Shown: positions 27,636 to 56,511 of the stretch, piece after piece | Layout of the letters: every line of letters starts with the position of its first letter | How positions within the stretch are numbered: the stretch's first letter is position 1 | DNA from: Candidatus Angelobacter sp. | GTDB taxonomy: Bacteria; Acidobacteriota; Terriglobia; Terriglobales; Acidobacteriaceae | Direction: 5' to 3' | Length of the DNA stretch: 64,000 nucleotides | Assembly: GCA_035279585.1 (NCBI GenBank) | Contig: DATEHN010000108.1 | Location: 11,554 to 75,553 of the forward strand | Made by a program: the position numbers and the translations under genes | Notes under the pieces: model-generated | Seen by the model: only the letters and a program-made list of their open reading frames with translations | Database searches by the model: none | Told to the model about the DNA's origin: nothing

Positions 27636-30368
27636 ATGCTCGGTCGTTCCTGCAGGGCCGTTGTTGCGAAGCACTGTTCCCTCGGCATTTTCATTTTGGC
27701 TTGCGCTCTAAGCCAGGCAAAAGCACAGAACATTCCTAATCCTTGCCCGAATGCGCAGCCAATCCCCACGGAGTTGCGCCTGCCGCCCAACCTGCCGACC
27801 GGTGAGCCAGTAGCTTTTGAGAAACAGGTGCTGGCGTATCTAAGCACGCTCAACTATCGCAAGCTCGGCTGGTGTGAAGACAAGTGGGTGCGCGATACAG
27901 GCCCTTATATGAATGGGAAAGACGCAATCGTGCATCCGCCGGTGCGCATCTTCTATTCGCCTGAAGTCTCCAAGTGGCTGCTCGGTGACCGTCAGGGCGA
28001 GATTCCGGACGGTGCGGTCATCATCAAGGAGCAATTTGGTCCTGCTCCGGCTGCGCGCTTTGCAAATATTCCGCCGGACAAGCTGGGATGCTCAAACGAC
28101 TGGACCTTCATGATCAAGAATTCAGCCGCATCCCGCGACGGCTGGTTCTGGGGCGAGGTCTGGAACAGTGATCAATTTCCCATGAATTTTTCTGATCCGT
28201 TCCAGTATCCCAATGCCGGATATGGGCTCTACTGCCTGCGCTGCCATTCGTCGGCGGAGAAAGAACATACTTTCTCGACGCTGAACAACATCAAGAACGC
28301 GCCGGGATGGCCGCTGCAATACCGGGTTGACGATTCCTGGATGACGATCAAGGCCGATCCTCCAGGCGCCTGTGGCCATGGCAAGAGCGGCGCTGATCCG
28401 ACGGCCAATGAAGGTTTTCCCCAGCACGCACAGAATGCGCTGCTGGCAACCGAACATGTTCATCCTCTGGCAAAGCTGCTGGCAGCACCTCCCGTTCTGC
28501 AAAGGATGCCGCCGGAGCCGCTGGACAACTTTGTGCAGAAGTATCCCAAATCACTCGATCCGCTTACGAGCCCACAATTCGTCACCTCAGCGCAGTGTCT
28601 GGGATGCCATGGCGGTCTTGGCAATACCGGATTTGGACCCAGCATGGTCATTCTTCCGGACATGAATGTCTCGCCTTATGGTGAGTGGCGCTGGTCGCCC
28701 ATGGGGCTTGCTGGACGCGACCCGGTTTTCTATTCGCAACTGGATAGCGAGCTTGCTTTCCTGAAAAGCCAGCCGAAAACACAGCAGAACGTAGTGGATA
28801 CGTGCATGAGCTGCCACGGAGTCATGGGCAAAAGGTCTTTTGCGGCGGAGCATCCAACGGAAAATTTCAAGGTGGATTTTGTCTATGACACCGATCAATC
28901 TTCTGACGCCTTCCGCTATGGAGGCCTCTCACGCGATGGCATCAGTTGCATGGCGTGCCACCAGATGGCAGCGCCCAAAGACGGCCGCCTGAGCTATTTT
29001 CTGCAAAACAAGATCAACGGCCAATTTGATCTCACGCCGAACGACCAACTCAACGGGCCCTTCAAAGACGCGGAGATCACGACTTATCCCATGGACACAG
29101 CGATGGGAGTGAAGCCAAAATTTAATTCCTATATTCAGTCGCCGCAGATGTGTGGAAGCTGCCACACGATTGTCCTTCCGATTGTGGACAGCCCGAAGCC
29201 CGGAGAAACAGAGGTAGAACAGGCGACCTATCCGGAGTGGCTGAACAGCCAGTATCGCAATGAATATGGATCGGTGGGCACCACGCCCAAGACGTGCCAG
29301 GAATGCCACATGCCCACCGGCTACGTCGATCAGAAACAGAAAATCGATGTAACCCAGATCAAGACGCGCATAGCTACTGTGCAGGACCTTACGCTCCCGC
29401 AAACCGAACACCTGGCAACGCCGGAGCAAATCGACGTCCGCTACCGCGATGAAGGCTATCGCCGCCACGAATTGCTGGGAGCCAATGGGTTCCTTCAGGA
29501 GATGTTCCTGCTGCCGATCAACGATAGCGGAAACAACACGGTTCTTGGCGTGCGAACGAAAGACTACATGACCGGTTTCACCACCGACCTGAACAAAGCA
29601 GTGGACAACGTGGTGAAACAGGCGCAGAGCATTACGGCAACAGTTGGGATCTATAGCCTCCACGCGCAAGGAAATAAGCTTACAGTTGATGTAATTGTTA
29701 ACAACTTGGCTGGACATCGCTTTCCCAGCGGAGTTGGATTCCGGCGCGCCCTCCTTGAATTTCGGGCGATGGCTAACGGGCAGACCTTCTTTACCTCTGG
29801 AACCACCAACAGCATGGGACAGATCACAGACTCCAACGGCAAGGTGTTGCCCACGGAATCATTCGCGGGGGGAAAATATCAGCCTCATTTCAACCAGAAA
29901 AACCCCATCACCTCTTCTGACCAGGTGCAGATCTATGAGGAGCTCACCGAGGATGCGAACCATCAAATTACAACCAGCTTCACGCGGCGCGATCATGAAA
30001 TCAAAGACAATCGGCTGCTGCCCGCAGGGTGGTCTTTCACCGGTCCGCCCGACCTGAAGATTCCGGAGTTCTTTCTGGAAGCTACGCGTCCGAAGGGAGA
30101 TGCAGCAAATGATCCGGTATACCTTGCCGGCAAAGGACAGTCGATTGTGCGCTATGAAATTGCCATTCCGCCCAACCTGCAGAACCAGCCTGTAACCGTA
30201 AGAGTGTCACTCTATCTGCAAACTCTGCCGCCGTACTTCCTGGCGGACCGTTACCAGACGGCAACACCGGCAACCGGCCGGCTGAAATATTTAACAGGTT
30301 CCCTGGGAACGCTCAAGGACACGGAGTTGGCGAACTGGAAGTTGCTGGTGGCAACAGCAACGAAATAG
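27636..30368 (+). CDS. Secreted hexaheme c-type cytochrome family protein (910 aa)
   Basis: Signal peptide, then six CxxCH motifs read directly from the translation: CLRCH, CLGCH, CMSCH, CMACH, CGSCH, CQECH. Confidence 0.8.
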   Translation: MLGRSCRAVVAKHCSLGIFILACALSQAKAQNIPNPCPNAQPIPTELRLPPNLPTGEPVAFEKQVLAYLSTLNYRKLGWCEDKWVRDTGPYMNGKDAIVHPPVRIFYSPEVSKWLLGDRQGEIPDGAVIIKEQFGPAPAARFANIPPDKLGCSNDWTFMIKNSAASRDGWFWGEVWNSDQFPMNFSDPFQYPNAGYGLYCLRCHSSAEKEHTFSTLNNIKNAPGWPLQYRVDDSWMTIKADPPGACGHGKSGADPTANEGFPQHAQNALLATEHVHPLAKLLAAPPVLQRMPPEPLDNFVQKYPKSLDPLTSPQFVTSAQCLGCHGGLGNTGFGPSMVILPDMNVSPYGEWRWSPMGLAGRDPVFYSQLDSELAFLKSQPKTQQNVVDTCMSCHGVMGKRSFAAEHPTENFKVDFVYDTDQSSDAFRYGGLSRDGISCMACHQMAAPKDGRLSYFLQNKINGQFDLTPNDQLNGPFKDAEITTYPMDTAMGVKPKFNSYIQSPQMCGSCHTIVLPIVDSPKPGETEVEQATYPEWLNSQYRNEYGSVGTTPKTCQECHMPTGYVDQKQKIDVTQIKTRIATVQDLTLPQTEHLATPEQIDVRYRDEGYRRHELLGANGFLQEMFLLPINDSGNNTVLGVRTKDYMTGFTTDLNKAVDNVVKQAQSITATVGIYSLHAQGNKLTVDVIVNNLAGHRFPSGVGFRRALLEFRAMANGQTFFTSGTTNSMGQITDSNGKVLPTESFAGGKYQPHFNQKNPITSSDQVQIYEELTEDANHQITTSFTRRDHEIKDNRLLPAGWSFTGPPDLKIPEFFLEATRPKGDAANDPVYLAGKGQSIVRYEIAIPPNLQNQPVTVRVSLYLQTLPPYFLADRYQTATPATGRLKYLTGSLGTLKDTELANWKLLVATATK

Positions 30369-30641
30369 GATTGCGCGCCCCCTGCATAACAGGACGCGCT
30401 CAGCGGAAAATGCAGACAATTAAGGACTTGGTGGACCTGGTCGGGATCGGTCTTACATGGGGTATTGATAATACGTAAGTTCCGTATGCCCAAAAGGTCC
30501 CAAATGCCTAGTTTGTCGGATCGGTTGTACGATTTTTGTGCGGTGAATTTTCAAAATCGCGTTTTATCATTTGCTCCAACATTCCCCGTTTAACCTTCCG
30601 ATCGAAGTCTCGAAAGTGTACGCTCATAGCTAATGAAAACG

Positions 30642-30677
30642 CGTCCGAAAATGGACACGGAAGTCCATAATTGGACA
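30642..30677 (+). promoter_or_regulatory. Tandem palindromic sites (candidate enhancer/UAS for the NtrC-type regulator)
   Basis: CGTCCGAAAATGGACA (30642-30657) and AGTCCATAATTGGACA (30662-30677) sit 20 bp centre to centre. The same TGTCCA-N4-TGGACA motif recurs at 36284-36320. Confidence 0.45.
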
Positions 30678-30739
30678 CCAATGCGAGCCAGGGTTTGCCT
30701 TTAGCCTTTTGTTTTTAAGAAATTTTGCGAAAAATAGAT

Positions 30740-30755
30740 TGGCTCTAGGAATGCA
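30740..30755 (+). promoter_or_regulatory. Candidate sigma54 (-24/-12) promoter upstream of the ADOP permease operon
   Basis: TGGCTC-TAGGA-ATGCA has GG and GC at the exact consensus spacing of TGGCAC-N5-TTGCW. It lies ~130 nt upstream of ATG 30885. Confidence 0.45.
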
Positions 30756-30884
30756 TCAACACAGGTCAGGCCTTTAGCGGGGTACGTCGATCCAAAGATA
30801 ATGTGATGAATACTTGGAAGATCGCGAGTGAGGCTTAGCTCGCTCAGGATGGGAAAGCGGTTCGTAATGGCGAGCCATCGATTG

Positions 30885-33326
30885 ATGTCAACACTCTTTC
30901 AAGACTTCTCTTACTGCATTCGTTCTCTGAGGAAAACACCGGGATTCACATTCGTGTCCGTGGCCACCTTGGCGTTTGCTATCGCCGCTAACATAGTGGT
31001 TTTCAGCATTCTCGATGCGATAGCCCTACAGCCACCACCTTATCGCAATGCCGGCCGCATTTCGGTGCTTCGCTGGTCTGATCGTAAGCTTCAACCCCAA
31101 GCAGAGGTTTCGGCCGCCGTTTTCTTTATGTTGCAGAAACATGCCCAATCTTTTGCAACAGTCGCTGCATCATATCCGCAAGACGTGGGTATAAACCTTG
31201 CCGGATCGGGTGTTCCACGTTATGTCAAAGCCCTACGCGTGTCGCAGAGCTATTTCGAAACGCTCGGCGTAGAACCGATCCTCGGACGCTCCTTTTTGCC
31301 AGAAGAAGATCGGGCCGGCTCTCCGGGAACGGTTATCCTCAGTTATCGATTGTGGGAAACCGGTTTCAATCGGGAGCCTGCCATTCTCGGAGAGCAACTT
31401 AGGATCAATGGCGCCCAATTCTCGGTTATCGGTGTGATGCCTTCCGGATTTTATTCGTATCCCAATGCCGATGTTTGGGTTCCTCTACAACTCAATGACG
31501 CAAATGCCGATCCAGGTAGTGACTACTTAGTACTTGCTTCTTTGAAAGACACTGTGGTTCCCTCCCAGGCGGAACAGGAACTGTCGACACTTTCTCGTAA
31601 TTATCCTATGTCTTACCTTCCTGGCATGACAGCAGGAACGGCACAACTCAGCCTCGAAGATTTGCAGAAATTCCGTACTGCCAGGGTTCGCAGACAACTC
31701 ACTTTATTGTTCTTTGCAGTTGCCACAGTGCTTCTGGTCACTTGCACCAATGTAACTGTATTGCTTCTGGTGCGCGGACTTGCCCGAACACAAGAAATGG
31801 CGCTGCGAGCTGCTCTAGGCTCGTCAAAATGGAGGTTGGTCCAAATTGTTTTGACCGAAAGCGCGCTCGTTGCCGCATGCGGAGGGATCCTCGGGATTGC
31901 TTTGGGCAAGGAGCTGTTGCAGTTGGCTGTATCAATTCTGCCCCATCCTTTGTTGGAAGGCGCAAGAATTGACATGAACCGACAATCATTGCTTTTCGGT
32001 CTAGCGCTTTCAGCTTTAACCCTTGTCGTCCTCGGGTTCCTGCCTGCCATTAAATTGGACCTGAAGAGCATTACCGCCAGCTTGAGGCCGGCGAACCGGG
32101 GTATAACAGCCGGCGTTGGCCAGACCCGGCTGGCTCAACTCCTGGTAACGACGGAAGCAGCGCTGACGGTTGTTCTTCTTGGGTTCGGACTACTTCTATT
32201 GCAGAGCTTTATAAATCTGTGTTCGGTGAGTCCTGGCTTCAATCCGACGTCTGTATCCGTTATCCAGGTATCGCTTGCCGGTGCACGGTATCAAACCACA
32301 GCAGCCACATGTCGTCTGGTAGATTCGGTTGTCGATCAACTTGCGAGAACGGCAGGGGTCGAAACCGTAGGAACCAGCAATGGCCTGCCACTCGAAACCG
32401 GCCTGAATCTGCCTGTCTATCCAATGGATTCACCCCGCAATATCGACCACGCGGTCCAATATCGAATGGTCAAAGGCAGTTATTTCAAAGCCTTGCGCAT
32501 CCAGCTGTTATCTGGGCGATTGTTTTCCCAGCAAGACGGCGCAAAGGGGCAGCCCGTTGCAATCATCAATGAAGTACTGGCCCGTCGCTGGTGGCCGAAC
32601 GAGAGCGCGATTGGTCATTACCTCCATGCCGGCGAGGAATACGGTCCGGAGTTCAACGATCATCCACGCCAGGTCATCGGCGTTGTTGCCAACGTGCATG
32701 AACTAGGGTTGAGGTACGATTCTCCACCCACAGTCTTTGTGCCTGATGACCAGGTATCGGACAGCCTGACTGCGTTTACGAACAAGCTGTTTTTACTTTC
32801 CATCCTCGTTCGAACCAAGCAGGATCTGGAGATGTCCGAACAAATCAAGTCCGTCCTCGCCTCTGCTGACCCCGATCTTCCAATCGCATCTTCACGTCCC
32901 ATGACAGTCGTGATGAACGGATCTCTTGCTCGTCCACGCTTCTATACCCAGATTGCGGGGCTCTTCGCTGTTTTCGCATTGCTTCTGACAGCGATCGGGC
33001 TGTATGGGTTACTCAGCTATCAAGTACAGCTCAGGATGCCAGAACTCGGTGTCCGAATTGCCCTTGGAGCGACCCGGCCGCAGATAGTTTGGCTTATCAT
33101 CAGACAAGGCATACGTCTTTCCGCAACGGCTCTTTTCTTAGGGCTCATCGGTTCGATTTTTGTAAGCCGGGCTCTGAGTGGGATGCTTTATAATACCGAC
33201 CATGTCTTCTTACGGTTATTGATTGGGGAGGGTGCATTACTTGGGTTCGTTACGATAATGGTTACTTCCCTCGCTGCTGCTCGCATTTCCGCTATCGAAC
33301 CATTGACGGTCCTGCGCAGCCAGTAA
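30885..33326 (+). CDS. ADOP-family (MacB/FtsX-like duplicated) ABC transporter permease
   Basis: The N-terminus MSTLFQDFSYCIRSLRKTPGFTFVSVATLAFAIAANI is typical of acidobacterial duplicated orphan permeases. It has two MacB-periplasmic-core plus FtsX 4-TM halves and no adjacent ATPase gene. The ORF track starts at GTG 30828. Confidence 0.85.
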   Translation: MSTLFQDFSYCIRSLRKTPGFTFVSVATLAFAIAANIVVFSILDAIALQPPPYRNAGRISVLRWSDRKLQPQAEVSAAVFFMLQKHAQSFATVAASYPQDVGINLAGSGVPRYVKALRVSQSYFETLGVEPILGRSFLPEEDRAGSPGTVILSYRLWETGFNREPAILGEQLRINGAQFSVIGVMPSGFYSYPNADVWVPLQLNDANADPGSDYLVLASLKDTVVPSQAEQELSTLSRNYPMSYLPGMTAGTAQLSLEDLQKFRTARVRRQLTLLFFAVATVLLVTCTNVTVLLLVRGLARTQEMALRAALGSSKWRLVQIVLTESALVAACGGILGIALGKELLQLAVSILPHPLLEGARIDMNRQSLLFGLALSALTLVVLGFLPAIKLDLKSITASLRPANRGITAGVGQTRLAQLLVTTEAALTVVLLGFGLLLLQSFINLCSVSPGFNPTSVSVIQVSLAGARYQTTAATCRLVDSVVDQLARTAGVETVGTSNGLPLETGLNLPVYPMDSPRNIDHAVQYRMVKGSYFKALRIQLLSGRLFSQQDGAKGQPVAIINEVLARRWWPNESAIGHYLHAGEEYGPEFNDHPRQVIGVVANVHELGLRYDSPPTVFVPDDQVSDSLTAFTNKLFLLSILVRTKQDLEMSEQIKSVLASADPDLPIASSRPMTVVMNGSLARPRFYTQIAGLFAVFALLLTAIGLYGLLSYQVQLRMPELGVRIALGATRPQIVWLIIRQGIRLSATALFLGLIGSIFVSRALSGMLYNTDHVFLRLLIGEGALLGFVTIMVTSLAAARISAIEPLTVLRSQ

Positions 33327-33344
33327 GTCCTTGCACGACCGGCA

Positions 33345-34802
33345 ATGCTGCGGGGAATTATTGAGAAGCCTGGGCACCCTTGGCTCAGTTCTGCTCATAT
33401 GCGAAATTTCGAGAATCAATACCGCATTCTGGCTGCCGATGATCAACCCGCCGTGCTTGAAGCCCTGAAGATGCTGCTCCGGTCGGAAGGCTTTGAAGTA
33501 GAAACGGCCCGTTCACCCCAGGTCGCTCTGGAAGCAGTAAAAACGCGTGAATTCGATACTCTGATCCTGGACCTCAACTATGCCCGCGATACCACTTCGG
33601 GGAAGGAAGGCATTGAGCTTCTTGAAAGCATTCGTGAAGTGGATAACCAGGTACCGATCATCGTGATGACGGCCTGGGGCACGATTGATCTCGCTGTAGA
33701 GGCGGTACGCAGAGGTGCGCGCGATTTTGTCCAAAAGCCCTGGAACGACGACCACTTGATAGCTACGGTCCGAACCACTGCGGAACTGTACCGTGCCCTG
33801 CGCCAGGGACAACGCCTTGAAGCAGAGAACCGGCTATTTCGCAGCTATGGTGCGCCAAGTTTTGTCGCTACAGCTCCTGCCATGCGCCCCATAGTAGAAG
33901 CCATTTCGCAGATTGGCCCATCGGACGCCAATGTTCTTATTACGGGCGAACACGGCGCCGGGAAAGAGGTGGTGGCTTTGATGTTACATGCGGTTTCACG
34001 TCGCGCAGACAAACCGCTCATTGCCGTCAACACCGGGGGCTTGCCGGAGGGCACTTTTGAAAGCGAATTGTTTGGTCACGTCAGAGGGGCCTTTACCGAT
34101 GCCAAGGCGGACCGGATCGGGCGATTTGAAATGGCTGATCAGGGAACATTGTTCTTGGATGAAATTGCCAATGTTCCGCTGAGGCAGCAGGCCAAACTCC
34201 TGCGCGTTTTGGAGAGTGGGCAGATGGAGCGTGTAGGGTCCTCACGCACACGCCAGGTGAATGTGCGTGCTCTCTCTGCGACAAATGCGGACCTTCAAGC
34301 CAAATGCAATGCGGGTGAATTTCGTGAAGACCTTCTGTTTCGGCTTAATACTGTTGAAATTCACATTCCATCGCTGCGGGAGCGCCCTGAGGATATTCCG
34401 CCTCTGGCTGCACATTTCTTGAATAAACACGCCAGCCGTTATCATAAGGCGCTTCAGGGACTCAGCCCTGAAGCAGTGGAGAAACTCGTAACCTTTCCCT
34501 GGCCGGGAAATGTACGGCAGCTGGACCACGTTATTGAACGCGCCACGATCATGTGCAAAGGAAATTTCATTCAACCCGGCGACCTGGGGCTTCAAGTTTC
34601 CTCCGAACATCATCCAGCAGACCTGAGTGAGATGAGCCTCGAACAGGCGGAAAAGCTCCTGATCAAGAAGGCTTTAGCGCGTTATAAAGGGAGTGTGAAG
34701 CTGGCGGCTGAAGCGCTGGGTCTCAGCCGCGGCACATTTTATCGCCGGATGGAGAAGCACGGGCTACATGAATCCACGTCCGCCAGGAAACAGCAGCAAT
34801 AA
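33345..34802 (+). CDS. Sigma54-dependent response regulator (NtrC family bEBP: REC-AAA+-Fis HTH)
   Basis: REC domain (RILAADDQP...LILDLNY). AAA+ domain with Walker A GEHGAGKE, the loop ELFGHVRGAFTDA (GAFTGA variant), Walker B LFLDEI and R-finger region. C-terminal HTH AAEALGLSRGTFYRRM. ATG 33399 is an alternative start. Confidence 0.9.
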   Translation: MLRGIIEKPGHPWLSSAHMRNFENQYRILAADDQPAVLEALKMLLRSEGFEVETARSPQVALEAVKTREFDTLILDLNYARDTTSGKEGIELLESIREVDNQVPIIVMTAWGTIDLAVEAVRRGARDFVQKPWNDDHLIATVRTTAELYRALRQGQRLEAENRLFRSYGAPSFVATAPAMRPIVEAISQIGPSDANVLITGEHGAGKEVVALMLHAVSRRADKPLIAVNTGGLPEGTFESELFGHVRGAFTDAKADRIGRFEMADQGTLFLDEIANVPLRQQAKLLRVLESGQMERVGSSRTRQVNVRALSATNADLQAKCNAGEFREDLLFRLNTVEIHIPSLRERPEDIPPLAAHFLNKHASRYHKALQGLSPEAVEKLVTFPWPGNVRQLDHVIERATIMCKGNFIQPGDLGLQVSSEHHPADLSEMSLEQAEKLLIKKALARYKGSVKLAAEALGLSRGTFYRRMEKHGLHESTSARKQQQ

Positions 34803-36189
34803 AGGAATGGGACGGCTATCGCTGTCCTTTGAGCGCCGCCTGTTTCTTTCCGTACTGTTCGCCGGACTTCCTGGAGTCGGACTCGCCCTCTTTCTGCTTT
34901 GGTCAGGCCAGTATTCCCTCTACCATAAGACCCTGGGCACCGTTGTTCTGGCTCTTCTGTGGTCCTTATTGGCGGTGTCCGCTTGTGGGAGCGTCACCAG
35001 CGCATTGCGGGTCTTGTCAAATGTAATCGAATCTCTCAAGGAGGAAGACTTTTCCTTTCGGGCTGCGCATGCAATTAAGGGTGATGCACTGGGCGATCTA
35101 GCAATCGAGGTCAATAAACTTGCTCAAGCGCTCAACGAAGAGCGCCTGGCATCATTGGAAACCGTGAATCTATTTCGCCGCATCATGTCGGAAGCTGGAG
35201 CGGTGATGTTTGCCTTTTCCGATGACCGCTGCGTGCGCCTCATGAATCGAGATGCAGCCCGCTTGTTGGGCCATAGCGAAGAACAGCTGCTGCATCGCAG
35301 CGCGCAAGAGCTGGGTATTACTGATCTCATCGAGGGCCCACCCGCGGAAACAATAACCCGCATGTTCGGTGGTCTTGAACGTCGATGGATCGTTCGTCGC
35401 TCTCATTTCCGGTTCCATGGCATTCAACATACGTTAATCGTGATGTCGGAAGCATCCGAGGCGCTTCGCGCGGAAGAGAGATCAGCTTGGCAAAAACTTA
35501 TCCGCGTTCTCGGCCATGAGATTAATAATTCGCTTGCACCAATTAAGTCGATTGCATATACGTTGGCCCGAACGTCGGCAAGCGAAAATTTGCCGGCACC
35601 GTTGAAAGTTAACCTGAAACAAGGGTTGGAAGTCATTGCTGATCGTTCCGATTCCCTGAACCGATTTCTTCAGGCCTATACCCAAATCGCAAAACTTCCT
35701 CCGCCGTCACCCATGGTAAGTTCGTTGCCGGCCATTGTCTCCAATGTTGTTGCCTTGGAGCACAGACTTCCCATTGCCACTCTTTCGGATGGCTGTCTCG
35801 ATGTTCTTGTTGATCGTGACCAACTGGAGCACGCTATCATCAATTTGGTTCGTAACGCTGTCGAGGCGGTACTGATGAACTCAGAAGTGGTGCAGGATGA
35901 CGCCGTGACAATATCATGGCATTCACATGCAGGCGATCTCGAACTATGGATACGGGACCGCGGCATTGGCCTTCCCGAAACTCAGAACCTATTTGTTCCT
36001 TTTTACACCACTAAGCAGAATGGGACCGGCATTGGCCTTGTGCTGAGCCGCCAAATCATTGAAGCGCATAATGGCCGTCTCTCCATCCAAAACCGCCAGG
36101 ATGGGCCCGGTTGTGAAGTTAGGCTTTTCCTGCCTCGCTGTGTAGTCGCTCGCAAGCCGCTGGGACGTATGCCATCCACCGGAAAATGA
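34768..36189 (+). CDS. Sensor histidine kinase (2 TM, HAMP/PAS-like, HisKA, HATPase_c)
   Basis: H-box LGHEINNSLAPIKS, N-box LVRNAVEA, G-boxes DRGIGLP and GTGIGLVLSRQI. It overlaps or abuts the regulator gene (alternative start ATG 34807). Confidence 0.9.
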   Translation: MNPRPPGNSSNKGMGRLSLSFERRLFLSVLFAGLPGVGLALFLLWSGQYSLYHKTLGTVVLALLWSLLAVSACGSVTSALRVLSNVIESLKEEDFSFRAAHAIKGDALGDLAIEVNKLAQALNEERLASLETVNLFRRIMSEAGAVMFAFSDDRCVRLMNRDAARLLGHSEEQLLHRSAQELGITDLIEGPPAETITRMFGGLERRWIVRRSHFRFHGIQHTLIVMSEASEALRAEERSAWQKLIRVLGHEINNSLAPIKSIAYTLARTSASENLPAPLKVNLKQGLEVIADRSDSLNRFLQAYTQIAKLPPPSPMVSSLPAIVSNVVALEHRLPIATLSDGCLDVLVDRDQLEHAIINLVRNAVEAVLMNSEVVQDDAVTISWHSHAGDLELWIRDRGIGLPETQNLFVPFYTTKQNGTGIGLVLSRQIIEAHNGRLSIQNRQDGPGCEVRLFLPRCVVARKPLGRMPSTGK

Positions 36190-36283
36190 ATCTTTGCTTC
36201 CGTGCTTTAATGTAATCCGAGCCTCCAGAGGTTTTTATCCCCGTGAATACATCGGGACATCCTGCACCACACTTGCGCTCTCA

Positions 36284-36320
36284 TGTCCGCTACTGGATTC
36301 GATTTGTCCATAACTGGACA
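36284..36320 (+). promoter_or_regulatory. Tandem palindromic sites (candidate enhancer/UAS) upstream of the lanthipeptide operon
   Basis: TGTCCGCTACTGGATT (36284-36299) and the perfect palindrome TGTCCATAACTGGACA (36305-36320) sit 21 bp centre to centre. A third, weaker site TGTCCAAGTTTGGCGG lies at 36416-36431. Confidence 0.5.
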
Positions 36321-36474
36321 CGCAAACCGTAATTTTTCCTGAGATTGATCTAGGGACCGGAAATCAATTCAACACATCTATTGTTTTTCCATATACGAGA
36401 AGCACATACATCTCATGTCCAAGTTTGGCGGCTGCGAGTATTAAGGCAGTTTAGTACCATAGCGGCAATAACTA

Positions 36475-36490
36475 TGGCACAACACTTGCT
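36475..36490 (+). promoter_or_regulatory. Sigma54 (-24/-12) promoter
   Basis: TGGCAC-AACAC-TTGCT matches TGGCAC-N5-TTGCW at every specified position. It ends 48 nt upstream of the precursor-peptide ATG. Confidence 0.65.
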
Positions 36491-36537
36491 TACCTAGGAT
36501 GTACCCGATTTTAAATCTAAAGCTATGGAGAAAGTCG

Positions 36538-36678
36538 ATGCCCCAAGTTCTTAACTTTCAACGCCTGGGATTTAATGGATCACGGATTGATGATATTGAA
36601 CCATTGTTTCTTATCAGCAGTACCAGCAGCATCTGCTCAACCGTTCCAACAACCGGCAGCGGGATCCCAGCCAACTAG
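36538..36678 (+). CDS. Class III lanthipeptide precursor peptide (46 aa; not in ORF track)
   Basis: ATG 36538 is preceded by GGAGAAAGTCG. The product is MPQVLNFQRLGFNGSRIDDIEPLFLISSTSSICSTVPTTGSGIPAN. It has a leader motif VLNFQ (compare the ILELQ-type class III leader motif). The Ser/Thr-rich core contains S-x-x-S-x-x-C. It lies 130 nt upstream of the LanKC gene. Confidence 0.7.
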   Translation: MPQVLNFQRLGFNGSRIDDIEPLFLISSTSSICSTVPTTGSGIPAN

Positions 36679-36686
36679 GCCGATAT

Positions 36687-36730
36687 GCGGGGCTGCTCAC
36701 GGTTCGAAAACCAGCCGCCCCGCCATTTTT
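36687..36730 (+). terminator. Hairpin plus T-run between precursor and synthetase genes (candidate attenuator / partial terminator)
   Basis: GCGGGGCTG (36687-36695) pairs with CAGCCGCCCCGC (36712-36723) with one bulge, followed by CATTTTT (T5 at 36726-36730). Confidence 0.4.
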
Positions 36731-36808
36731 CCCAGGAAACCCAGTTTTCAATCTACTTTGACTATATAGAAAGCTAGTCGAGTTTTATGTTGTAACTGGA
36801 AGGAAATC

Positions 36809-39547
36809 ATGCGCAGCAGACCGACCCTCTTGTACGAACTGCTCGATCGAGATTACTACGAGACATTCGATGCCTACGTGCCGGAGAAGGCGGATTTTTA
36901 TCATGCTGTCGATTCCAGGCTTCCCGCGGGATGGGAAATTCAGCGCCAAAATGTCTGGTTCCAATGCGGATCACCCGACAATGTGGTGCCGCAACAGGGC
37001 TGGAAAATCCATGTCTCCGCAACCTGCAAGGATGCCCGTGGCACTCTCGAGCGTGTCGTCACCGTGCTGTTTCGGAGAAAGGACACGGCCTTCAAATTTG
37101 CGCTCGACCGGGTTTCGCTTGCTCTCCTCAACAGCAAAGGCTGGACGCGTGGCGGAGCGGGCAAATTCATTACCATTTATCCGAAAGATATTCAATGTTT
37201 CTTGGAGCTGCTGGAAGAACTCCATAGCGTAACGCGCGGTCAAGCCGGCCCCTATATCTTGTCTGACTATCGATATGGCGCCGACGGCGTCGTCTTCTAT
37301 CGTTATGGTGGAATGCGCGCACGTTACAGTCTCAACGTAAGAGGAGAGCTCGTCCCCGTGCTGCTCGCCCCTGACGGTACAGAAACTCCGGACCGCCGCC
37401 TTCCCTTTCCCGTGACGCCCCCTTGGGCTGACGTTCCATTTCCTGCAGTCTCCGGTGAGGATACTCAATCAGGGGAGCTGATGCTCCTGCAAAACGGCAG
37501 ATACGAGATCCAAAATGTGATGGCGTTTTCCAATGCCGGCGGAGTGTATCGTGCTATCGACCGGCACACTGGGCTCCATGTAGTCCTAAAGGAGGCCCGT
37601 CCGCATGTTGGTCCTGCTAACTGTGGTATTGATGCAATAGAGCTATTGAAAAAAGAACACCGCTTGCTGACGATCCTGAGCGATAGCGGCATTGCACCCA
37701 GGCCCAATGACCTTTTTCAGGAATGGGAACACTGGTTCTTGGTCGAGGAATTCATCGAGGGAGTGACTCTGGCGAATCATTCCTTACAGCATAATATTCT
37801 GCTGCGCACCAGACCATGCTCTGACGATCTACAGCAGTGGTTAACTACGTTTTCGAGTGTCGCCTTGAATCTCATCAAGACCATTGAAATCTTGCATGAC
37901 CATGGAATTGTATTCGGCGACCTTTCCCCCAATAACCTGATCGTCAAACCAGGCACCAATGACTTGTGCGTGATTGATTTCGAAGCAGCGCAGCAGATAG
38001 GCATAGACGCGCCCCTCGTGCTCTACACTCCCGGCTTCGCCTCTAAGCAGCGAATGTCCAGCGGAGCTGCCACTTTTGCCGAAGATTATTATGCCTTGGG
38101 GGCCGTCCTGAGTTCATATCTTCTGCCATTGAATGGTCTGTTCCAGTTCCGTCCTGAAGCCAAAACGGATGTTCTCCGTTCCATTGCAATTGACCTTCAT
38201 CTGCCGGCCAATATTGTTGATGCCATTCTGCGGCTCCTCAGCTCGGAGCCTGCCGAGCGCCCAACACCGAAAATGCTCACGCAACTCTTCACCACTCCAT
38301 GTGAACCCATGAATGTTCCTTCCAACGCGGCGCGCATCGACTACGGCGCATTGATAGGAGATATTGAGGGCCATATCCTCAATTCAGCAACTTACAAGCG
38401 CCATGACAGGCTGTTTCCCGCCGATGCGTCACTGTTCGCGACAAATCCTCTAAGCTTGTCCCATGGGGCGGCCGGGGTCGCCTACGCGTTGCATCGGATT
38501 TCTGATCAGTTTCCCGAGCGGGCCGTTGACTGGATCCTTCAGCATAAGATTACGAACAACGCGTATCCGCCTGGCTTATACATTGGGTCCTCGGGAATAG
38601 CTTGGTGTCTGCTTGAACTTGGCCTTCAAAAGGAAGCCGAGAAGATATTTCAGCTCACATTGTCCAGCCCTCTTCGATATAAGGCCGCAGACTTGTTTTA
38701 TGGCATGGCCGGCAACGGATTAACCGCATTGCGTTTCTTCATGGATACTCAAAATGAGTCATACCTGGATTGTGCAATCGGCGCTGGTGAAGAGCTGCTA
38801 CGAACAGGCTGCAGAAGCGGCAACGGGCTTTACTGGCCGGATGGTTCGGAAATACGGCTAGGCATGGCACATGGCGCGAGCGGAATAGCACTCTTTTTGC
38901 TTTATCTCTTCATGATAACTGAGGATGCTCGTTTCCTCGCCGCAGGGCAGGGCGCTCTGAATTTCGATTTAAGTTTCGCGCGTGAGACCAGGGATGAAGG
39001 ACTTTCCTGGGCACATTCCGATCATGTTGCATCTCCCCTCTATCCATACTGGCGCTTTGGGAGCGCCGGCGTGGGCGCCGTTGTATTGCGCTACTACAGG
39101 TTGCTTAGAGACCCCCAGTATCGATCCCTCCTCGAACAGATTTTCATCGAGGTGGATCGGAAGTATGCCGTTTTAACAGGGCAGTTCATGGGATTGTCCG
39201 GGCTTGGCGAGTTCTCGCTTGATCTTTACGAGTATTTTGGCGAGGAGAGATTTTTGAACAGCGCCAGAAAGGCTGCGGAGGGAATCATGCTCTTTCGCGT
39301 CGACCGCGCTGGCATCGCATTTCCGGGCGATCAACTTCTACGCCTTTCCTGCGACTATGGGACGGGAAGTGCCGGTGTTGCTTTGTTCTTGAACCGTCTC
39401 GCAGGCCGCCAGGGCAACAATTTCATGTTGGATTCTCTTTTCCATCTTCCCGCCGGCCTGCCCGAAAATACCCTGTCACCTTCGCAGCAACATTCCATTG
39501 CTCTTTATGATGTCATGCATCATCAATACATCCATTCCGGATGGTAG
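36809..39547 (+). CDS. Class III lanthipeptide synthetase LanKC (lyase - Ser/Thr kinase - zinc-ligand-less LanC-like cyclase)
   Basis: The RBS GGAAGGA precedes the ATG. N-terminal lyase motif QGWKIHVSA. Kinase motifs VVLKEARPHVG, GIVFGDLSPNNLIV and VIDFEAA. The C-terminal LanC-like repeats carry GMAHGASGIALFL, but YWRFGSAG replaces WCxG and SCDYGTGSAG replaces CHG, so the Zn ligand set is incomplete. That points to class III rather than class IV. Confidence 0.85.
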   Translation: MRSRPTLLYELLDRDYYETFDAYVPEKADFYHAVDSRLPAGWEIQRQNVWFQCGSPDNVVPQQGWKIHVSATCKDARGTLERVVTVLFRRKDTAFKFALDRVSLALLNSKGWTRGGAGKFITIYPKDIQCFLELLEELHSVTRGQAGPYILSDYRYGADGVVFYRYGGMRARYSLNVRGELVPVLLAPDGTETPDRRLPFPVTPPWADVPFPAVSGEDTQSGELMLLQNGRYEIQNVMAFSNAGGVYRAIDRHTGLHVVLKEARPHVGPANCGIDAIELLKKEHRLLTILSDSGIAPRPNDLFQEWEHWFLVEEFIEGVTLANHSLQHNILLRTRPCSDDLQQWLTTFSSVALNLIKTIEILHDHGIVFGDLSPNNLIVKPGTNDLCVIDFEAAQQIGIDAPLVLYTPGFASKQRMSSGAATFAEDYYALGAVLSSYLLPLNGLFQFRPEAKTDVLRSIAIDLHLPANIVDAILRLLSSEPAERPTPKMLTQLFTTPCEPMNVPSNAARIDYGALIGDIEGHILNSATYKRHDRLFPADASLFATNPLSLSHGAAGVAYALHRISDQFPERAVDWILQHKITNNAYPPGLYIGSSGIAWCLLELGLQKEAEKIFQLTLSSPLRYKAADLFYGMAGNGLTALRFFMDTQNESYLDCAIGAGEELLRTGCRSGNGLYWPDGSEIRLGMAHGASGIALFLLYLFMITEDARFLAAGQGALNFDLSFARETRDEGLSWAHSDHVASPLYPYWRFGSAGVGAVVLRYYRLLRDPQYRSLLEQIFIEVDRKYAVLTGQFMGLSGLGEFSLDLYEYFGEERFLNSARKAAEGIMLFRVDRAGIAFPGDQLLRLSCDYGTGSAGVALFLNRLAGRQGNNFMLDSLFHLPAGLPENTLSPSQQHSIALYDVMHHQYIHSGW

Positions 39548-39654
39548 TAGAAAGCAGCTTCTATCCACAAACGCAGCTCCGGCTATTAGAGTGACAACTG
39601 ATTGGGTGCGATCAGGATTTTGTCGAGGCCGAAGCCGGATGGAGTTTCTCGCCA

Positions 39655-40059
39655 TCAATCATTAAGGCCTTCCCCAACCAACGCGAGCATGTCTAAAAAG
39701 TCCCACAGTTCCGCAATTCGGCCATCAGCAAATCGGTAGATGCTGGCGCCGTCAATGCGTTTCTTCTTGCCCGAGGGCGGGATCCCCATAAAATCATTGG
39801 TATGTGTGCCAACAAGCTGATATCGGACCGCAACCTTGTCTCCCTCCCACAGCCAGTCTTTTGAAAGGAACTGGGCGTCCGGAAAAGCCGCCAGGAAATG
39901 CCTTACGTACGCCTTGAAAGAGGCTACTCCTTTGAATGAGCCCGAGCTGCCGTGACGCGTAAAATCCTGGTGCAACACGTCCCCGGCTTGCTCCACCCGG
40001 TCAACGTGCCAAAGCTTGTTGTATTGCATTAGCAAAGATGCATTAATACTTTCGCTCAT
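39655..40059 (-). CDS. SnoaL-like polyketide cyclase / predicted ester cyclase family protein
   Basis: 134 aa with the pattern DFTRHGS...AFPDAQF...VRYQLVGTHTNDFMGIPPSGKKKRIDGASIYRFADGRIAELWDFLD, typical of the SnoaL/ester-cyclase fold. Confidence 0.7.
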   Translation of the reverse strand: MSESINASLLMQYNKLWHVDRVEQAGDVLHQDFTRHGSSGSFKGVASFKAYVRHFLAAFPDAQFLSKDWLWEGDKVAVRYQLVGTHTNDFMGIPPSGKKKRIDGASIYRFADGRIAELWDFLDMLALVGEGLND

Positions 40060-40080
40060 TTGTAGGCCTTGCTCCTGCTA

Positions 40081-40419
<339 letters not shown>

Positions 40420-40466
40420 AGTTCCTAGGGAACAGATTCCTAATCATTAATCTCTCTTTGAGTTGG

Positions 40467-41069
40467 TTATCCTTGCCGGACCGCTATACCAGACTTGCGA
40501 TATTTGCGAGCGCACCAGTGAACAAAGCGGCTCGTCAATAAAACAAGCCCACAGCCCAGGGCCAGGCCGATCGGTACGACCCACCAACCGAGAAGGTCTC
40601 GGCCGCCGGCAGGTGGGCTGCCAAAGCCGAGACGAAAAGATATGTCGCCGTTCGAAAGCACCCATACTCCCGCGCTGCGATGGAGTGGTTTCAGTAGCGC
40701 GCAAAGAACAAGGACCAATCCCAAAAAGTACATGGAGATTAATCCTATCAGTGCAAGAAGACCGTTGATGCTCAAAGGGGCCCAACAAAGAAGAACTGGA
40801 AAGAGCCAGGCCGGTGACCGGCTGACAGCCTGCCGGCTCAAGATGCCTGCGAGATACTGGCTAGCCACTTCTTCCGGTGGTCCTATCGATGCCAGCACCT
40901 GGTCTACGGCGTCGGCAGAGACCTCTCCTTTCTCAGCCAGCTTGGCCATGATCTCGCTGCGCACTTCGCTGATCATCTTCTCCACGTCCTGGCTCTTCAA
41001 TTTTCGCAAGTGAGAGCGCAATCTTGAAAGAAACGCTTCTATCTTTTGTTGCGCATCGTCTTTCATCAT
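40467..41069 (-). CDS. DUF1700/HAAS-like membrane protein
   Basis: From ATG 41069 the product reads MMKDDAQQKIEAFLSRLRSHLRKLKSQDVEKMISEVRSEI...VLASIGPPEEVASQY, a DUF1700-type N-terminal helical domain. About 4 TM helices follow. The longer ORF-track start would overlap the halogenase gene. Confidence 0.5.
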   Translation of the reverse strand: MMKDDAQQKIEAFLSRLRSHLRKLKSQDVEKMISEVRSEIMAKLAEKGEVSADAVDQVLASIGPPEEVASQYLAGILSRQAVSRSPAWLFPVLLCWAPLSINGLLALIGLISMYFLGLVLVLCALLKPLHRSAGVWVLSNGDISFRLGFGSPPAGGRDLLGWWVVPIGLALGCGLVLLTSRFVHWCARKYRKSGIAVRQG

Positions 41070-54034: not shown

Positions 54035-56488
54035 TTATTCGATTCTGAGTGTGATATTCGGATCTATCTGGACTGCGCGAAACGTGGGTACAGCGCTGGC
54101 AGCCAGCGCCACAAGGCTCAGGAGGACCGAAACTCCGGTAAATGCCAGGGGATCGGTGGCGCCGACTCCAATCAGCAAACTCCTGATCGCATGGCTCACG
54201 AAGAATGCAAGCAGTAAGCCAGTCGACACTCCGGCAGCTACCAGCCTCGAGGTTTGCTTCAAAATCATCAACAAAACGGCGGACCTTTGCGCCCCCAAGG
54301 CCATCCGGATGCCGATTTCCTGTGTGCGCTGGGTCACGCCGTGGGAAACGACGCCGTAGACACCCACTATGGCCAGAATTAGCCCCAGCAGGCCAAATGT
54401 TGCGGCCAAACCTGCTCCCAAACGGAAGATGAAGAATCCGTTCGGTCCATTCATTGCATCCTTCATTTCCCGCACATCAAATACTGGCATGGCGGGCGCC
54501 AGCGACGATATTGCTTTTTGCACCTCCGTCATCACAGGACCCGCCAGGCTGGTGGTACGAACCTGCAAAGTCCGCACTGAGACATAATGTTGGTCGAGCG
54601 GCAGGAAGAAATAAGCTTCTACATCGTCTGTAATGTCTACGTATTGAGCGTCTTTTGTAATCCCGACAACTTCAATCAGCGGCGCTGAGGCGCTGTTCAG
54701 GGAAAACCGCTTGCCGATTGCATCGCCGTTGGGCCAGAGCTGACGTGCCATGGTTTCATTCACGAGGGCGACCGCTGGTTCCGTCAAAGTGTCCGTATGT
54801 GTGAATGTTCTTCCTCGCAGAAGTGAAATCTGCAGGTTCTTGAAGTATTCAGGGTCTACGGTGTTGTAATAGATAGGTGATGGGCGCCCACCCTTCACTG
54901 GCACCTGTCCTTCCGCATAAACGCTGGCTGTCTGATGAATATAGCCGAACGGGACTGACGAACATAAACTTGCCGACTGCACGCCTGGAAGCGCGCGGAC
55001 TCGTGACAGAAGATCTTGATAGAAAGCGTTTCCGCGCGTGTCGTCATAACCGACCTCGCGTGGGTCCATGGTGAAGTTAACCAGGTTCTCAGATTGAAAT
55101 CCCATCTGCATATGCTGAGCTTTGTTGAGGCTCCTTACAAAAAGCCCAGCCACGATCAGCAGAACCAGTGAAATAGCAATTTGTGAAACCACCAGCCCAT
55201 TTCGAAGCACACGCACCCATCCACCGGAAGAAGTTCCCCGCCCGCCTTCGTGCAGTATCTTGGCGAGATTCGCTTTAGGGACGCCTAGCGCGGGTGTGAT
55301 GCCCACTAAAATCCCTGTGAGAAGCGTAACGATAAAGGTGTAGGCAAGGACCCTCCAGTCCATGGTGAAATCCAGGTGGACCGGCAAATCAAGCTGTGCG
55401 CGCAGTGACTGGAGAGTGTCACAAGCAAGGCGGCCAAGGGCAATACCAACAATCCCGCCCAGCACCGCCAGTGGCACACTCTCAGATAGCGATAACCATA
55501 TAGTGGCCGACCGCTGGGCGCCCAGGGCCGTTCGGATGGCAACTTCTCTCTGACGGCCAACCGCGCGAACCAAGAGCATATTCAACACGTTCACGCTTGC
55601 CACAAGCAGAACCAGCCCGGCGAGCGCGAGAAAAAATGTACCCAGAACCGGCAGGACACTAGAGGAACCCGGCCCGATACGCGCCCGCAACTCCGGGAAC
55701 AAACGCACGCTGATGTTGGCGTTCGATTCCGGATACTGCTGCTCCAGACGTCGTGAAACTACATTCAGAGCAGCCTGTGCCTCGGCAACATTCACGTTCG
55801 CTTTCAATCGTCCGAGAACCTTCAGGTTACGAATATCACGCTTGGTCCAGAACGAATTGCTGTCGGTCCCGATTCCCGCAGTGCTGAGCGGCAGATATGC
55901 ATCGGGCTCCAGTGTGAAAGAGGGGCCGTGAAAGCTTTCCGCCGCTACGCCGATGATTGTAAAAATACGGCCATTGACGGTTACGCCCTTTCCAACAATG
56001 CCGGGGTCCCGATTAAAGCGCCGGTTCCAGTAAGAATAGGCAAGCACAATCAGATTGTCTGCCCCGAGCTGCTCCCCTTCTCCTGGCAACAGGAGACGTC
56101 CCGTCGCCGGCTTGATCCCCAGCATTGAGAAAAAATTACCTGTCACGTAATCGATCACCACTCGGTCTGCCCTGCCACCACTGCTGAGCCCCACTAGGCT
56201 TGGTTGATAGGCGGCCATGTCTTTCAAGGCCTCCGATTGCTTTCGCAGATCAAGGAAGTCGGAATAGGAGGTGCTCAAAAAGTCTGAGGTGTCCTTCTTC
56301 TGTTCGACGAGGACGACGATATGGCCGGGATCTTCCACCGGCAATGGACGGAGGAGAACAGAGTTCACCACACTGAACATGGCCGTATTGACCCCGACTC
56401 CCAGGGCAATCGTTATGATGATCAGACCTGAGAACCAGGGGTTCGTCATCAGCATTCGTATCACAGGCCGCAAATTTCGACGTATCAT
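54035..56488 (-). CDS. ADOP-family (MacB/FtsX-like duplicated) permease, second copy
   Basis: ATG 56488 is preceded by AAGAGGA, 23 nt after the upstream stop. The N-terminus reads MIRRNLRPVIRMLMTNPWFSGLIIITIALGVGVNTAMFSV. Two FtsX-type halves and no ATPase gene adjacent. Confidence 0.85.
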   Translation of the reverse strand: MIRRNLRPVIRMLMTNPWFSGLIIITIALGVGVNTAMFSVVNSVLLRPLPVEDPGHIVVLVEQKKDTSDFLSTSYSDFLDLRKQSEALKDMAAYQPSLVGLSSGGRADRVVIDYVTGNFFSMLGIKPATGRLLLPGEGEQLGADNLIVLAYSYWNRRFNRDPGIVGKGVTVNGRIFTIIGVAAESFHGPSFTLEPDAYLPLSTAGIGTDSNSFWTKRDIRNLKVLGRLKANVNVAEAQAALNVVSRRLEQQYPESNANISVRLFPELRARIGPGSSSVLPVLGTFFLALAGLVLLVASVNVLNMLLVRAVGRQREVAIRTALGAQRSATIWLSLSESVPLAVLGGIVGIALGRLACDTLQSLRAQLDLPVHLDFTMDWRVLAYTFIVTLLTGILVGITPALGVPKANLAKILHEGGRGTSSGGWVRVLRNGLVVSQIAISLVLLIVAGLFVRSLNKAQHMQMGFQSENLVNFTMDPREVGYDDTRGNAFYQDLLSRVRALPGVQSASLCSSVPFGYIHQTASVYAEGQVPVKGGRPSPIYYNTVDPEYFKNLQISLLRGRTFTHTDTLTEPAVALVNETMARQLWPNGDAIGKRFSLNSASAPLIEVVGITKDAQYVDITDDVEAYFFLPLDQHYVSVRTLQVRTTSLAGPVMTEVQKAISSLAPAMPVFDVREMKDAMNGPNGFFIFRLGAGLAATFGLLGLILAIVGVYGVVSHGVTQRTQEIGIRMALGAQRSAVLLMILKQTSRLVAAGVSTGLLLAFFVSHAIRSLLIGVGATDPLAFTGVSVLLSLVALAASAVPTFRAVQIDPNITLRIE

Positions 56489-56511
56489 AAATCTGTCCTC
56501 TTGATTCTTTC

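Follow-up and report, generated by a model that had tools for sequence, protein, structure and literature searches.

A 64,000-nucleotide stretch of DNA from Candidatus Angelobacter sp. (contig DATEHN010000108.1; hereafter the window, or W) raises the question of whether a permease of the ADOP family, encoded on the same strand as a class III lanthipeptide precursor and its synthetase LanKC, works for the same pathway and, if so, on which side of the inner membrane. A first-pass annotation of the window had proposed that a sigma54-dependent two-component circuit couples this permease to lanthipeptide production. Our analysis, in which compared loci are labelled L plus a number, points to a self-contained five-gene class III lanthipeptide module whose two-component system drives two sigma54 promoters and whose ADOP permease acts on the periplasmic side; we put the probability of this reading at about 0.62. 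All five genes lie on the forward strand between 30.6 and 39.6 kb of the window, and the open reading frames (ORFs), the Pfam and NCBIfam models and the motif counts bore out the gene order, the single strand, the shared operator and the two sigma54 promoters described in the annotation. The features are as follows, with positions in the window:

30643..30676, no strand assigned: upstream activating sequence (UAS) of the ADOP operon, palindromes GTCCGAAAATGGAC and GTCCATAATTGGAC with starts 20 bp apart; tandem sites also in orthologues
30740..30755, + strand: sigma54-type -24/-12 promoter of the ADOP-activator-kinase operon, TGGCTCTAGGAATGCA, by motif match and orthologue alignment
30885..33326, + strand: ADOP-family duplicated MacB/FtsX permease, in an ORF that opens at GTG 30828
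33345..34802, + strand: sigma54 enhancer-binding response regulator (the activator), with a receiver domain, an AAA+ domain with a GAFTDA loop and a Fis-type helix-turn-helix (HTH)
34768..36189, + strand: histidine kinase with two transmembrane helices, HAMP-like segment, PAS, H-box and HATPase_c
36285..36319, no strand assigned: UAS of the precursor promoter, GTCCGCTACTGGAT (one mismatch) and GTCCATAACTGGAC, with starts 21 bp apart
36475..36490, + strand: sigma54-type -24/-12 promoter of precursor and LanKC, TGGCACAACACTTGCT, with equivalents in related loci
36538..36678, + strand: class III lanthipeptide precursor of 46 amino acids, MPQVLNFQRLGFNGSRIDDIEPLFLISSTSSICSTVPTTGSGIPAN, with homologues before every LanKC in related loci
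36687..36730, + strand: stem-loop with T5 between precursor and LanKC, a possible but weak attenuator judged by folding energy
36809..39547, + strand: class III lanthionine synthetase LanKC (lyase, kinase, cyclase), by domain models

The assignment to class III follows from domain models and from the precursor. LanKC contains the Pfam domains RamC_N, Pkinase and LANC_like and scored 764 bits on the class III model NF038151 (cut-off 575), as against 589.7 bits on the class IV model NF038150, which is under that model's cut-off of 650. The window precursor combines a VLxFQ leader motif with an S-x-x-S-x-x-C core (MPQVLNFQ...SSTSSIC), and homologous precursors were found in all 22 loci compared, each locus having one with the leader M-x-x-(V/I)L-x-LQ and the core S-x-x-S-x-x-C, and in five more. 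Translation of the precursor probably starts at 36538 and not at 36499, the first ATG of its ORF.

The annotation had staked its hypothesis on co-conservation of the two-component and ADOP genes with the lanthipeptide genes, and we found this in both directions, in 21 of 21 loci approached from LanKC and in 5 of 5 approached from ADOP. A LanKC scan that took one genome per species yielded 28 loci, mostly from Candidatus Angelobacter and other Terriglobia, and the 21 loci at 51% identity or more were examined by tblastn. An ADOP orthologue (41-59% identical) adjoined LanKC in each of these, the other ADOP paralogues in the same loci being only 23-34% identical. The activator was present in 20 of the 21 loci and the kinase in 17, every missing case being a contig end. 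The cassette of ADOP, activator and kinase is divergent from precursor and LanKC in most loci and co-directional in W, L001, L019 and L109; the linkage between ADOP and LanKC has therefore survived inversion. When the ORFs of 23-24 loci were clustered, only LanKC, ADOP, activator and kinase (plus the precursor) were shared, and no other conserved transporter or peptidase appeared among them.

For the reverse search, ADOP was run against a non-redundant database of about 5.8 billion protein sequences. The matches comprised 29 clusters with 634 bits or more at 41-100% identity, 28 of them at 41-60%, followed by a sharp drop to 36% identity (477 bits). Five relatives at 41-56% identity were traced to their contigs; LanKC was adjacent in all of them, and activator and kinase were nearby wherever the contig reached. 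The paralogue at 36% identity had neither LanKC nor the activator and kinase beside it. A metagenome scan with the kinase gave two matches at 54% identity or more, both of the lanthipeptide type (L030, with LanKC, and L029, which ends at the kinase). Assemblies in which the module is found include JAIQGL01, QHVI01, CAWHQH01 and JBGPPK01. The lanthipeptide-linked ADOPs form one clade, the sister of which is the ADOP of a distant class III cluster from Pyrinomonadaceae (L025). Conservation through inversion, together with the shared cis-elements described below, excludes chance adjacency.

The two regulatory regions of the window carry the same elements. The palindrome GTCC-N6-GGAC occurs exactly at 30643, 30663 and 36306 and with one mismatch at 36285; the 64-kb window contains one further exact copy, against 0.63 expected. 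The 17-base sites at 30662-30678 and 36305-36321 fit a 17-base pattern with one and zero mismatches, respectively. In each region the paired palindromes are 20-21 bp apart and a GG-N10-GC element follows downstream, the palindromes standing about 65-100 bp 5' of the -24/-12 element on the ADOP side and about 155-190 bp 5' of it on the precursor side. The precursor element is a perfect TGGCAC-N5-TTGCT (36475-36490) that begins 63 nt before the precursor ATG, and the ADOP element is the weaker TGGCTC-N5-ATGCA (30740-30755). In an alignment of the ADOP promoters of W, L019, L029 and L001, the GG, the GC and several flanking bases were invariant in diverged surroundings. The tandem sites on the ADOP side also recur at -185/-165 from the ORF start in orthologous loci and line up in that alignment.

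Site densities, spacings and sigma54 counts were taken over 22 loci. The regulatory regions of ADOP and precursor held 54 palindromes in 16 kb (3.36 per kb) as against 30 in 428 kb elsewhere (0.07 per kb), a 48-fold enrichment. Their consensus is T-GTCC-A-N4-T-GGAC-A (TGTCCA-N4-TGGACA), and the spacing was exactly 20 bp in 17 of the 22 neighbouring pairs that lay less than 60 bp apart. Aligning the precursor upstream regions was uninformative because they differ in length, so we counted by position: of the 22 loci, 21 had a sigma54-type element in the interval -95..-55 relative to the precursor ATG, where chance would give 0.029 per locus. The layout was repeated in five more loci that had been reached independently, and the shared control sites are kept across about 27 related genomes. 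The operator and the -24/-12 promoters that had been read from the window alone are thus conserved at both targets. Scans of 30300-40500 for sigma70 promoters and intrinsic terminators gave results at chance level, and the intergenic region of the Gemmatimonadales locus L022, read for the same operator or -24/-12 element, contained neither.

The activator (33345-34802) has the Pfam domains Response_reg, Sigma54_activat, AAA_lid_14 and HTH_8, with the receiver aspartate in LILDLNY, and the ADOP gene lies 5' of it in the same operon. The kinase spans the membrane at residues 24-47 and 54-80 with an intervening loop of about 6-9 residues, continues with a HAMP-like stretch, a PAS fold, the H-box GHEINNSL and HATPase_c, and has no sensor domain outside the membrane. 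Scanning with the kinase also uncovered a sister clade of about 40 loci (activator about 60% and kinase about 42% identical) in which LanKC was found nowhere. Where contigs reach far enough, the sister operon encodes an HlyD adaptor, an ABC ATPase, an ADOP-family permease, a second ABC ATPase, a TolC-like outer-membrane efflux protein (OEP), the activator and the kinase. Six sister loci have a single palindrome, GTCC(G/A)AT(A/T)T(C/T)GGAC, about 140 bp 5' of the HlyD gene, and the sister operon carries GTCCGATATCGGAC upstream. The lanthipeptide-linked and the pump-linked clades have almost the same HTH recognition helix (LSRGTFYRRMEKHGL vs LSRGALYRRMERYGL); the Gemmatimonadales homologue has a different recognition helix, and its locus lacks the palindrome motif. 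From the same palindrome and the near-identical helix in the sister clade we infer that the palindromes of the window are bound by its activator.

The ADOP gene occupies an ORF from 30828 to 33326, of which the public gene call covers 30885-33326 (813 amino acids). Its product contains two MacB_PCD domains (periplasmic core domains) and two FtsX domains by Pfam, has about eight membrane helices by hydropathy and scored 702.6 bits on TIGR03434 (cut-off 622.3). The closest solved structures are the MacB-type permeases 5XU1, 5NIK and 5LIL, the best of them being 5XU1, a MacB-like permease of Streptococcus pneumoniae. The coupling-helix motif through which MacB-type permeases contact their ATPase, RTREIGLRKALGA in 5XU1, is kept in ADOP as RTQEMALRAALGS, which suggests that an ATPase is encoded elsewhere. 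The annotation had called the permease an orphan. That description fits the window as well as the lanthipeptide loci of Terriglobia, in which no stand-alone ATPase was found, but it cannot be extended to the whole family: the permease of sister locus L041 scored 853.8 bits on TIGR03434, and ADOP permeases above the cut-off are flanked there by two ATPases. These ATPases are candidate partners for ADOP. Complete operons of HlyD, ATPase, ADOP, ATPase and OEP were seen in L041 (771-11344) and also in L039, L043, L047, L049, L058, L059 and L062; a HlyD gene lies near ADOP in L019 and L029.

Three further loci bear on the role of the permease. L025 encodes precursors, LanKC, an ABC_membrane exporter, a protein without an assigned family, ADOP and a prolyl oligopeptidase, without a two-component system of this kind. 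In L022, the activator, kinase, HlyD, ATPase and MacB-type permease genes are divergent from four precursors, LanKC and an ABC_membrane exporter. In L112, an ABC_membrane exporter lies 48 bp downstream of ADOP on the same strand. Since the classical exporter and the MacB-type permease are kept together in these loci, the two probably do different jobs.

The window contains a second ADOP gene (54035-56587, - strand; 818.8 bits on TIGR03434) inside a nonribosomal peptide synthetase (NRPS)-type cluster (41153-63870) that also encodes a Trp halogenase, a CmlA-like hydroxylase, an ATP-grasp ligase, a thioesterase, an A-T-C module and a fused ABC exporter (58695-60347). Orthologues of this second ADOP adjoin the kinase of the lanthipeptide module in L003 (929-1052), L004, L018 and L020, where the same tandem palindromes and a TGGCC/TGGCT...ATGC -24/-12 element lie upstream. 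Judged by these sites, the second ADOP is part of the predicted regulon in those four loci and not in the window.

In the mechanism that we propose, a stimulated kinase, with its two helices and almost no external loop, would phosphorylate the activator, which would assemble on the tandem TGTCCA-N4-TGGACA palindromes 5' of each promoter and spend ATP to open closed complexes of sigma54-RNA polymerase. One promoter would express ADOP, activator and kinase, providing positive feedback as well as a supply of permease, and the other would express the precursor and LanKC. LanKC would recognise the VLxFQ leader and form a labionin or lanthionine ring in the core, S-x-x-S-x-x-C. ADOP, as a mechanotransmission permease of the MacB type (type VII ABC) served by an ATPase from elsewhere in the genome, would remove the mature peptide from periplasm or outer leaflet and in this way either protect the producer or carry out the second secretion step. 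A further role may be to report peptide load to the loop-less kinase, as BceB does to BceS; given a kinase without an external domain, such Bce-like co-sensing is a reasonable further inference. A role on the periplasmic side, in second-step secretion or self-protection, appears the most likely one for ADOP, because a MacB-type permease is kept beside classical exporters and because MacAB-TolC is described as expelling enterotoxin II from the periplasm (PMC8277102).

Several points weigh against this reading. The formal binomial probability of the sigma54 elements, about 1e-31, is overstated, since the loci are related by descent and binomial figures exaggerate their independence, and all compared module loci come from uncultured genomes. 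A stand-alone MacB-type ATPase, an HlyD and an OEP are all absent from the 64-kb window, where the sole nucleotide-binding domain is that of the fused ABC exporter (58695-60347) in the neighbouring NRPS cluster. The core Terriglobia loci contain no classical exporter to carry the peptide across the inner membrane. Class III lanthipeptides are often not antibacterial, and this weakens an immunity role. Finally, the loop with which the activator would contact sigma54 (34059-34103) is not the canonical GAFTGA: it reads GAFTDA, as in nearly all lanthipeptide-linked and pump-linked activators, three of which have GAYTDA; more distant relatives keep GAFTGA. Because of this replacement, contact with sigma54 is assumed from the conserved promoters.

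ADOP could conceivably be both effector and sensory input, its periplasmic domains handling the peptide and the loop-less kinase reading its conformational cycle, much as in Bce-type flux sensing, here in a two-membrane bacterium with a sigma54 output and no dedicated ATPase. We advance this fuller version only tentatively; if true, it would give the large ADOP family its first mechanistic role, and many 'orphan' ADOPs would be paired with peptide natural products or would share a common ATPase encoded elsewhere. The permease and the two-component system might instead be primarily a Bce-like unit for detoxifying or sensing foreign peptide antibiotics or membrane damage, with the lanthipeptide as a co-induced counter-weapon or surface-active peptide that is neither the inducer nor the substrate of ADOP. 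Such a unit would agree with the sister clade, in which the two-component systems run general tripartite efflux pumps without lanthipeptide genes, and with the loop-less topology, which is that of intramembrane-sensing kinases; the second ADOP paralogue under the same sites in L003, L004, L018 and L020 and the pneumococcal origin of the nearest solved relative, 5XU1, point the same way. We nevertheless judge it unlikely, as the lanthipeptide-type ADOP clade occurs only beside LanKC (5/5 look-ups and 21 genome loci) and the related ADOP of L025, in a class III cluster without such a two-component system, speaks for a peptide-specific role of the permease.

Export of the modified peptide across the inner membrane in a single step, with ADOP replacing a LanT/RamAB-type ABC exporter, would explain why ADOP is the sole transport-like protein conserved in the Terriglobia loci, where an ABC_membrane exporter is not conserved. 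Gram-negative clusters for peptides made by the ribosome and modified after translation (RiPPs) can also make use of duplicated FtsX permeases; NCBIfam lists DarB as the darobactin export permease. However, MacB-type transporters are described as taking substrates from the periplasm (PMC8277102), the locus has no ATPase, and in L022, L025 and L112 the MacB-type permease is accompanied by a classical ABC exporter; among the transport roles this is the least favoured, and we regard it as improbable. There is an even slimmer chance that ADOP has no transport function and serves the kinase solely as a co-sensor, or that the adjacency has no functional meaning. A co-sensor would need no ATPase partner in the locus, and its two large periplasmic domains would complement a kinase without an external sensor domain, yet ADOP retains its coupling-helix motif as RTQEMALRAALGS and the sister ADOP of L025 exists without the two-component system; a meaningless adjacency is at odds with conservation through inversion and with the shared cis-elements. 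We retain the module with a periplasmic-side permease as our preferred reading.

The module can be set beside several known systems. The ram and labyrinthopeptin (lab) class III clusters (ramCSAB-ramR; labKC-labA-labT) share with it a tri-domain LanKC, an (I/V)L-x-LQ leader motif with an S-x-x-S-x-x-C core, and clustered genes for a response regulator and a transporter. They differ in having an orphan NarL/FixJ-type regulator where the window has a sigma54 enhancer-binding regulator with its own kinase, and an ABC_membrane exporter pair where the window has an ATPase-less duplicated MacB/FtsX permease; the host of the window module, moreover, is an acidobacterium with two membranes. BceRS-BceAB of Firmicutes resembles the module in placing an FtsX-domain permease with large extracytoplasmic domains beside a two-component system, in a kinase with two transmembrane helices and almost no loop, and in induction of the permease by its own two-component system, which is predicted for the window. 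Unlike the sigma54 activator of the window, the Bce regulator is of the OmpR type. BceB, the partner of the ATPase BceA, has ten transmembrane helices and a single external domain; the window ADOP has about eight helices and two MacB core domains, and there is no ATPase gene next to it. The window kinase adds HAMP-like and PAS segments, and the predicted regulon takes in a peptide biosynthesis operon. The module may thus be Bce-like in its working without being a member of the Bce group.

The annotation had drawn its parallel with LanRK and LanFEG of class I lantibiotics (nisin, subtilin). This holds for the two-component logic and for matching operators at the promoters of structural gene and transporter; it does not hold for the parts, which are a sigma54 activator as opposed to an OmpR-type regulator, a MacB/FtsX permease as opposed to an ABC-2 transporter and a class III as opposed to a class I synthetase, and BceRS-BceAB, MacAB-TolC and DarBCD are closer working analogues. 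The MacAB-TolC group (type VII ABC, including the darobactin exporter DarBCD) has the same permease fold family, and from the periplasm its members secrete peptides and toxins (PMC8277102). Complete operons of this kind (HlyD, ATPase, ADOP, ATPase and OEP) are controlled by the sister clade of the window two-component system. In contrast to MacAB-TolC, the window lacks the ATPase, the membrane-fusion protein and the outer-membrane factor, and its permease is an internally duplicated single chain; with the DarB model, whose cut-off is 700 bits, the match reached only 34.6 bits and came from the second ADOP of the window.

Lanthipeptide clusters that combine two-component control with a transporter are of a known kind; what is new here are the parts, namely a sigma54 activator, a loop-less kinase and a permease of the ADOP family. 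In one survey, sigma54 regulators made up about 2% of the response regulators in two-component systems associated with biosynthetic gene clusters (PMC10663231). Our literature searches found no paper that links sigma54 or ADOP to lanthipeptides or describes the module, nothing relevant on class III lanthipeptides in Acidobacteria or on a lanthipeptide with an enhancer-binding protein, sigma-54 or MacB, and no study of ADOP function, the full name of ADOP turning up only in passing mentions in two papers. Acidobacteria have large paralogous families of ADOP permeases, and the module gives one clearly bounded subfamily a first specific, testable genetic context; the sister operons show which ATPases, adaptor and outer-membrane proteins can partner an ADOP. 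The module also adds a sigma54-dependent architecture to lanthipeptide control, and its defined operator and promoters offer a handle by which a heterologous host could switch on silent clusters taken from uncultured soil bacteria of the Candidatus Angelobacter type. In L027 (4132-5397; an Acetofilamentum metagenome-assembled genome), a stretch resembling the AAA+ and HTH parts of a sigma54 activator lies directly 5' of genes for a class III precursor and a LanKC. Since the match begins at query residue 188, no receiver domain was seen; the arrangement hints at sigma54 control of class III lanthipeptides beyond Acidobacteriota.

The related loci vary around precursor and LanKC. A conserved P-F-(E/Q)-M-E tail ends most precursors of the divergent-type loci (L002-L020, e.g. 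L003 9771-9911). The precursors of W, L001 and L019 lack this tail, which may act as a follower or in recognition. A stand-alone LanC-like protein with zinc-ligand-like motifs is encoded 3' of LanKC in some divergent-type loci (L003 12717-15967, L004, L018 and L020), and in these four it is followed by a second sigma54 activator that has no receiver domain and a single palindrome upstream. L006 and L009 have the LanC-like protein without the second activator, and L013 the second activator without the LanC-like protein. Comparing zinc ligands by eye, we read SWCEG and LCCG motifs in the LanC-like protein of L003; the window LanKC has WRFG where WC-x-G is expected, and a Cys is present in LSCDYG. 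The stem-loop with T5 at 36687-36730 folds with -24.2 kcal/mol (z = -1.5) and resembled the attenuator that is usual between a precursor and its synthetase. We rejected it as a terminator after the precursor, given the modest z and a comparable hairpin solely in L012 among the 22 loci, and list it as a weak, window-specific feature.

NusG paralogues adjoin LanKC or ADOP in at least ten loci (e.g. L002 13580-14158, L019 2287-2901 and L110 5028-5735). They often head NRPS-associated genes (MbtH, thioesterase), which suggests specialised antitermination of the neighbouring cluster; as members of the regulon they were rejected, palindromes upstream of them being inconsistent and clear only in L110.

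Just 5' of the module, the window encodes a 910-amino-acid multihaem cytochrome with a cytochrome P460-like domain (27636-30368, + strand), which is not conserved in the related loci. Directly 3' of LanKC, on the opposite strand, lies a SnoaL-like gene (39655-40059, - strand), and the same arrangement is seen in the closest relative, L019 (12699-13181, - strand), whose protein is 67% identical; the product could be an accessory enzyme or unrelated. It was not accepted into the regulon: the L019 copy has an upstream palindrome, and the window copy has none even when one mismatch is allowed. The sigma54-like TGGCAATAGAATTGCC near this gene (40355-40370) is itself a hairpin and was also caught by the terminator scan. 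Adjoining this palindromic sequence, a perfect (ACA)14 trinucleotide repeat (40313-40354) occupies the intergenic region between the SnoaL-like gene and a HAAS-domain gene.

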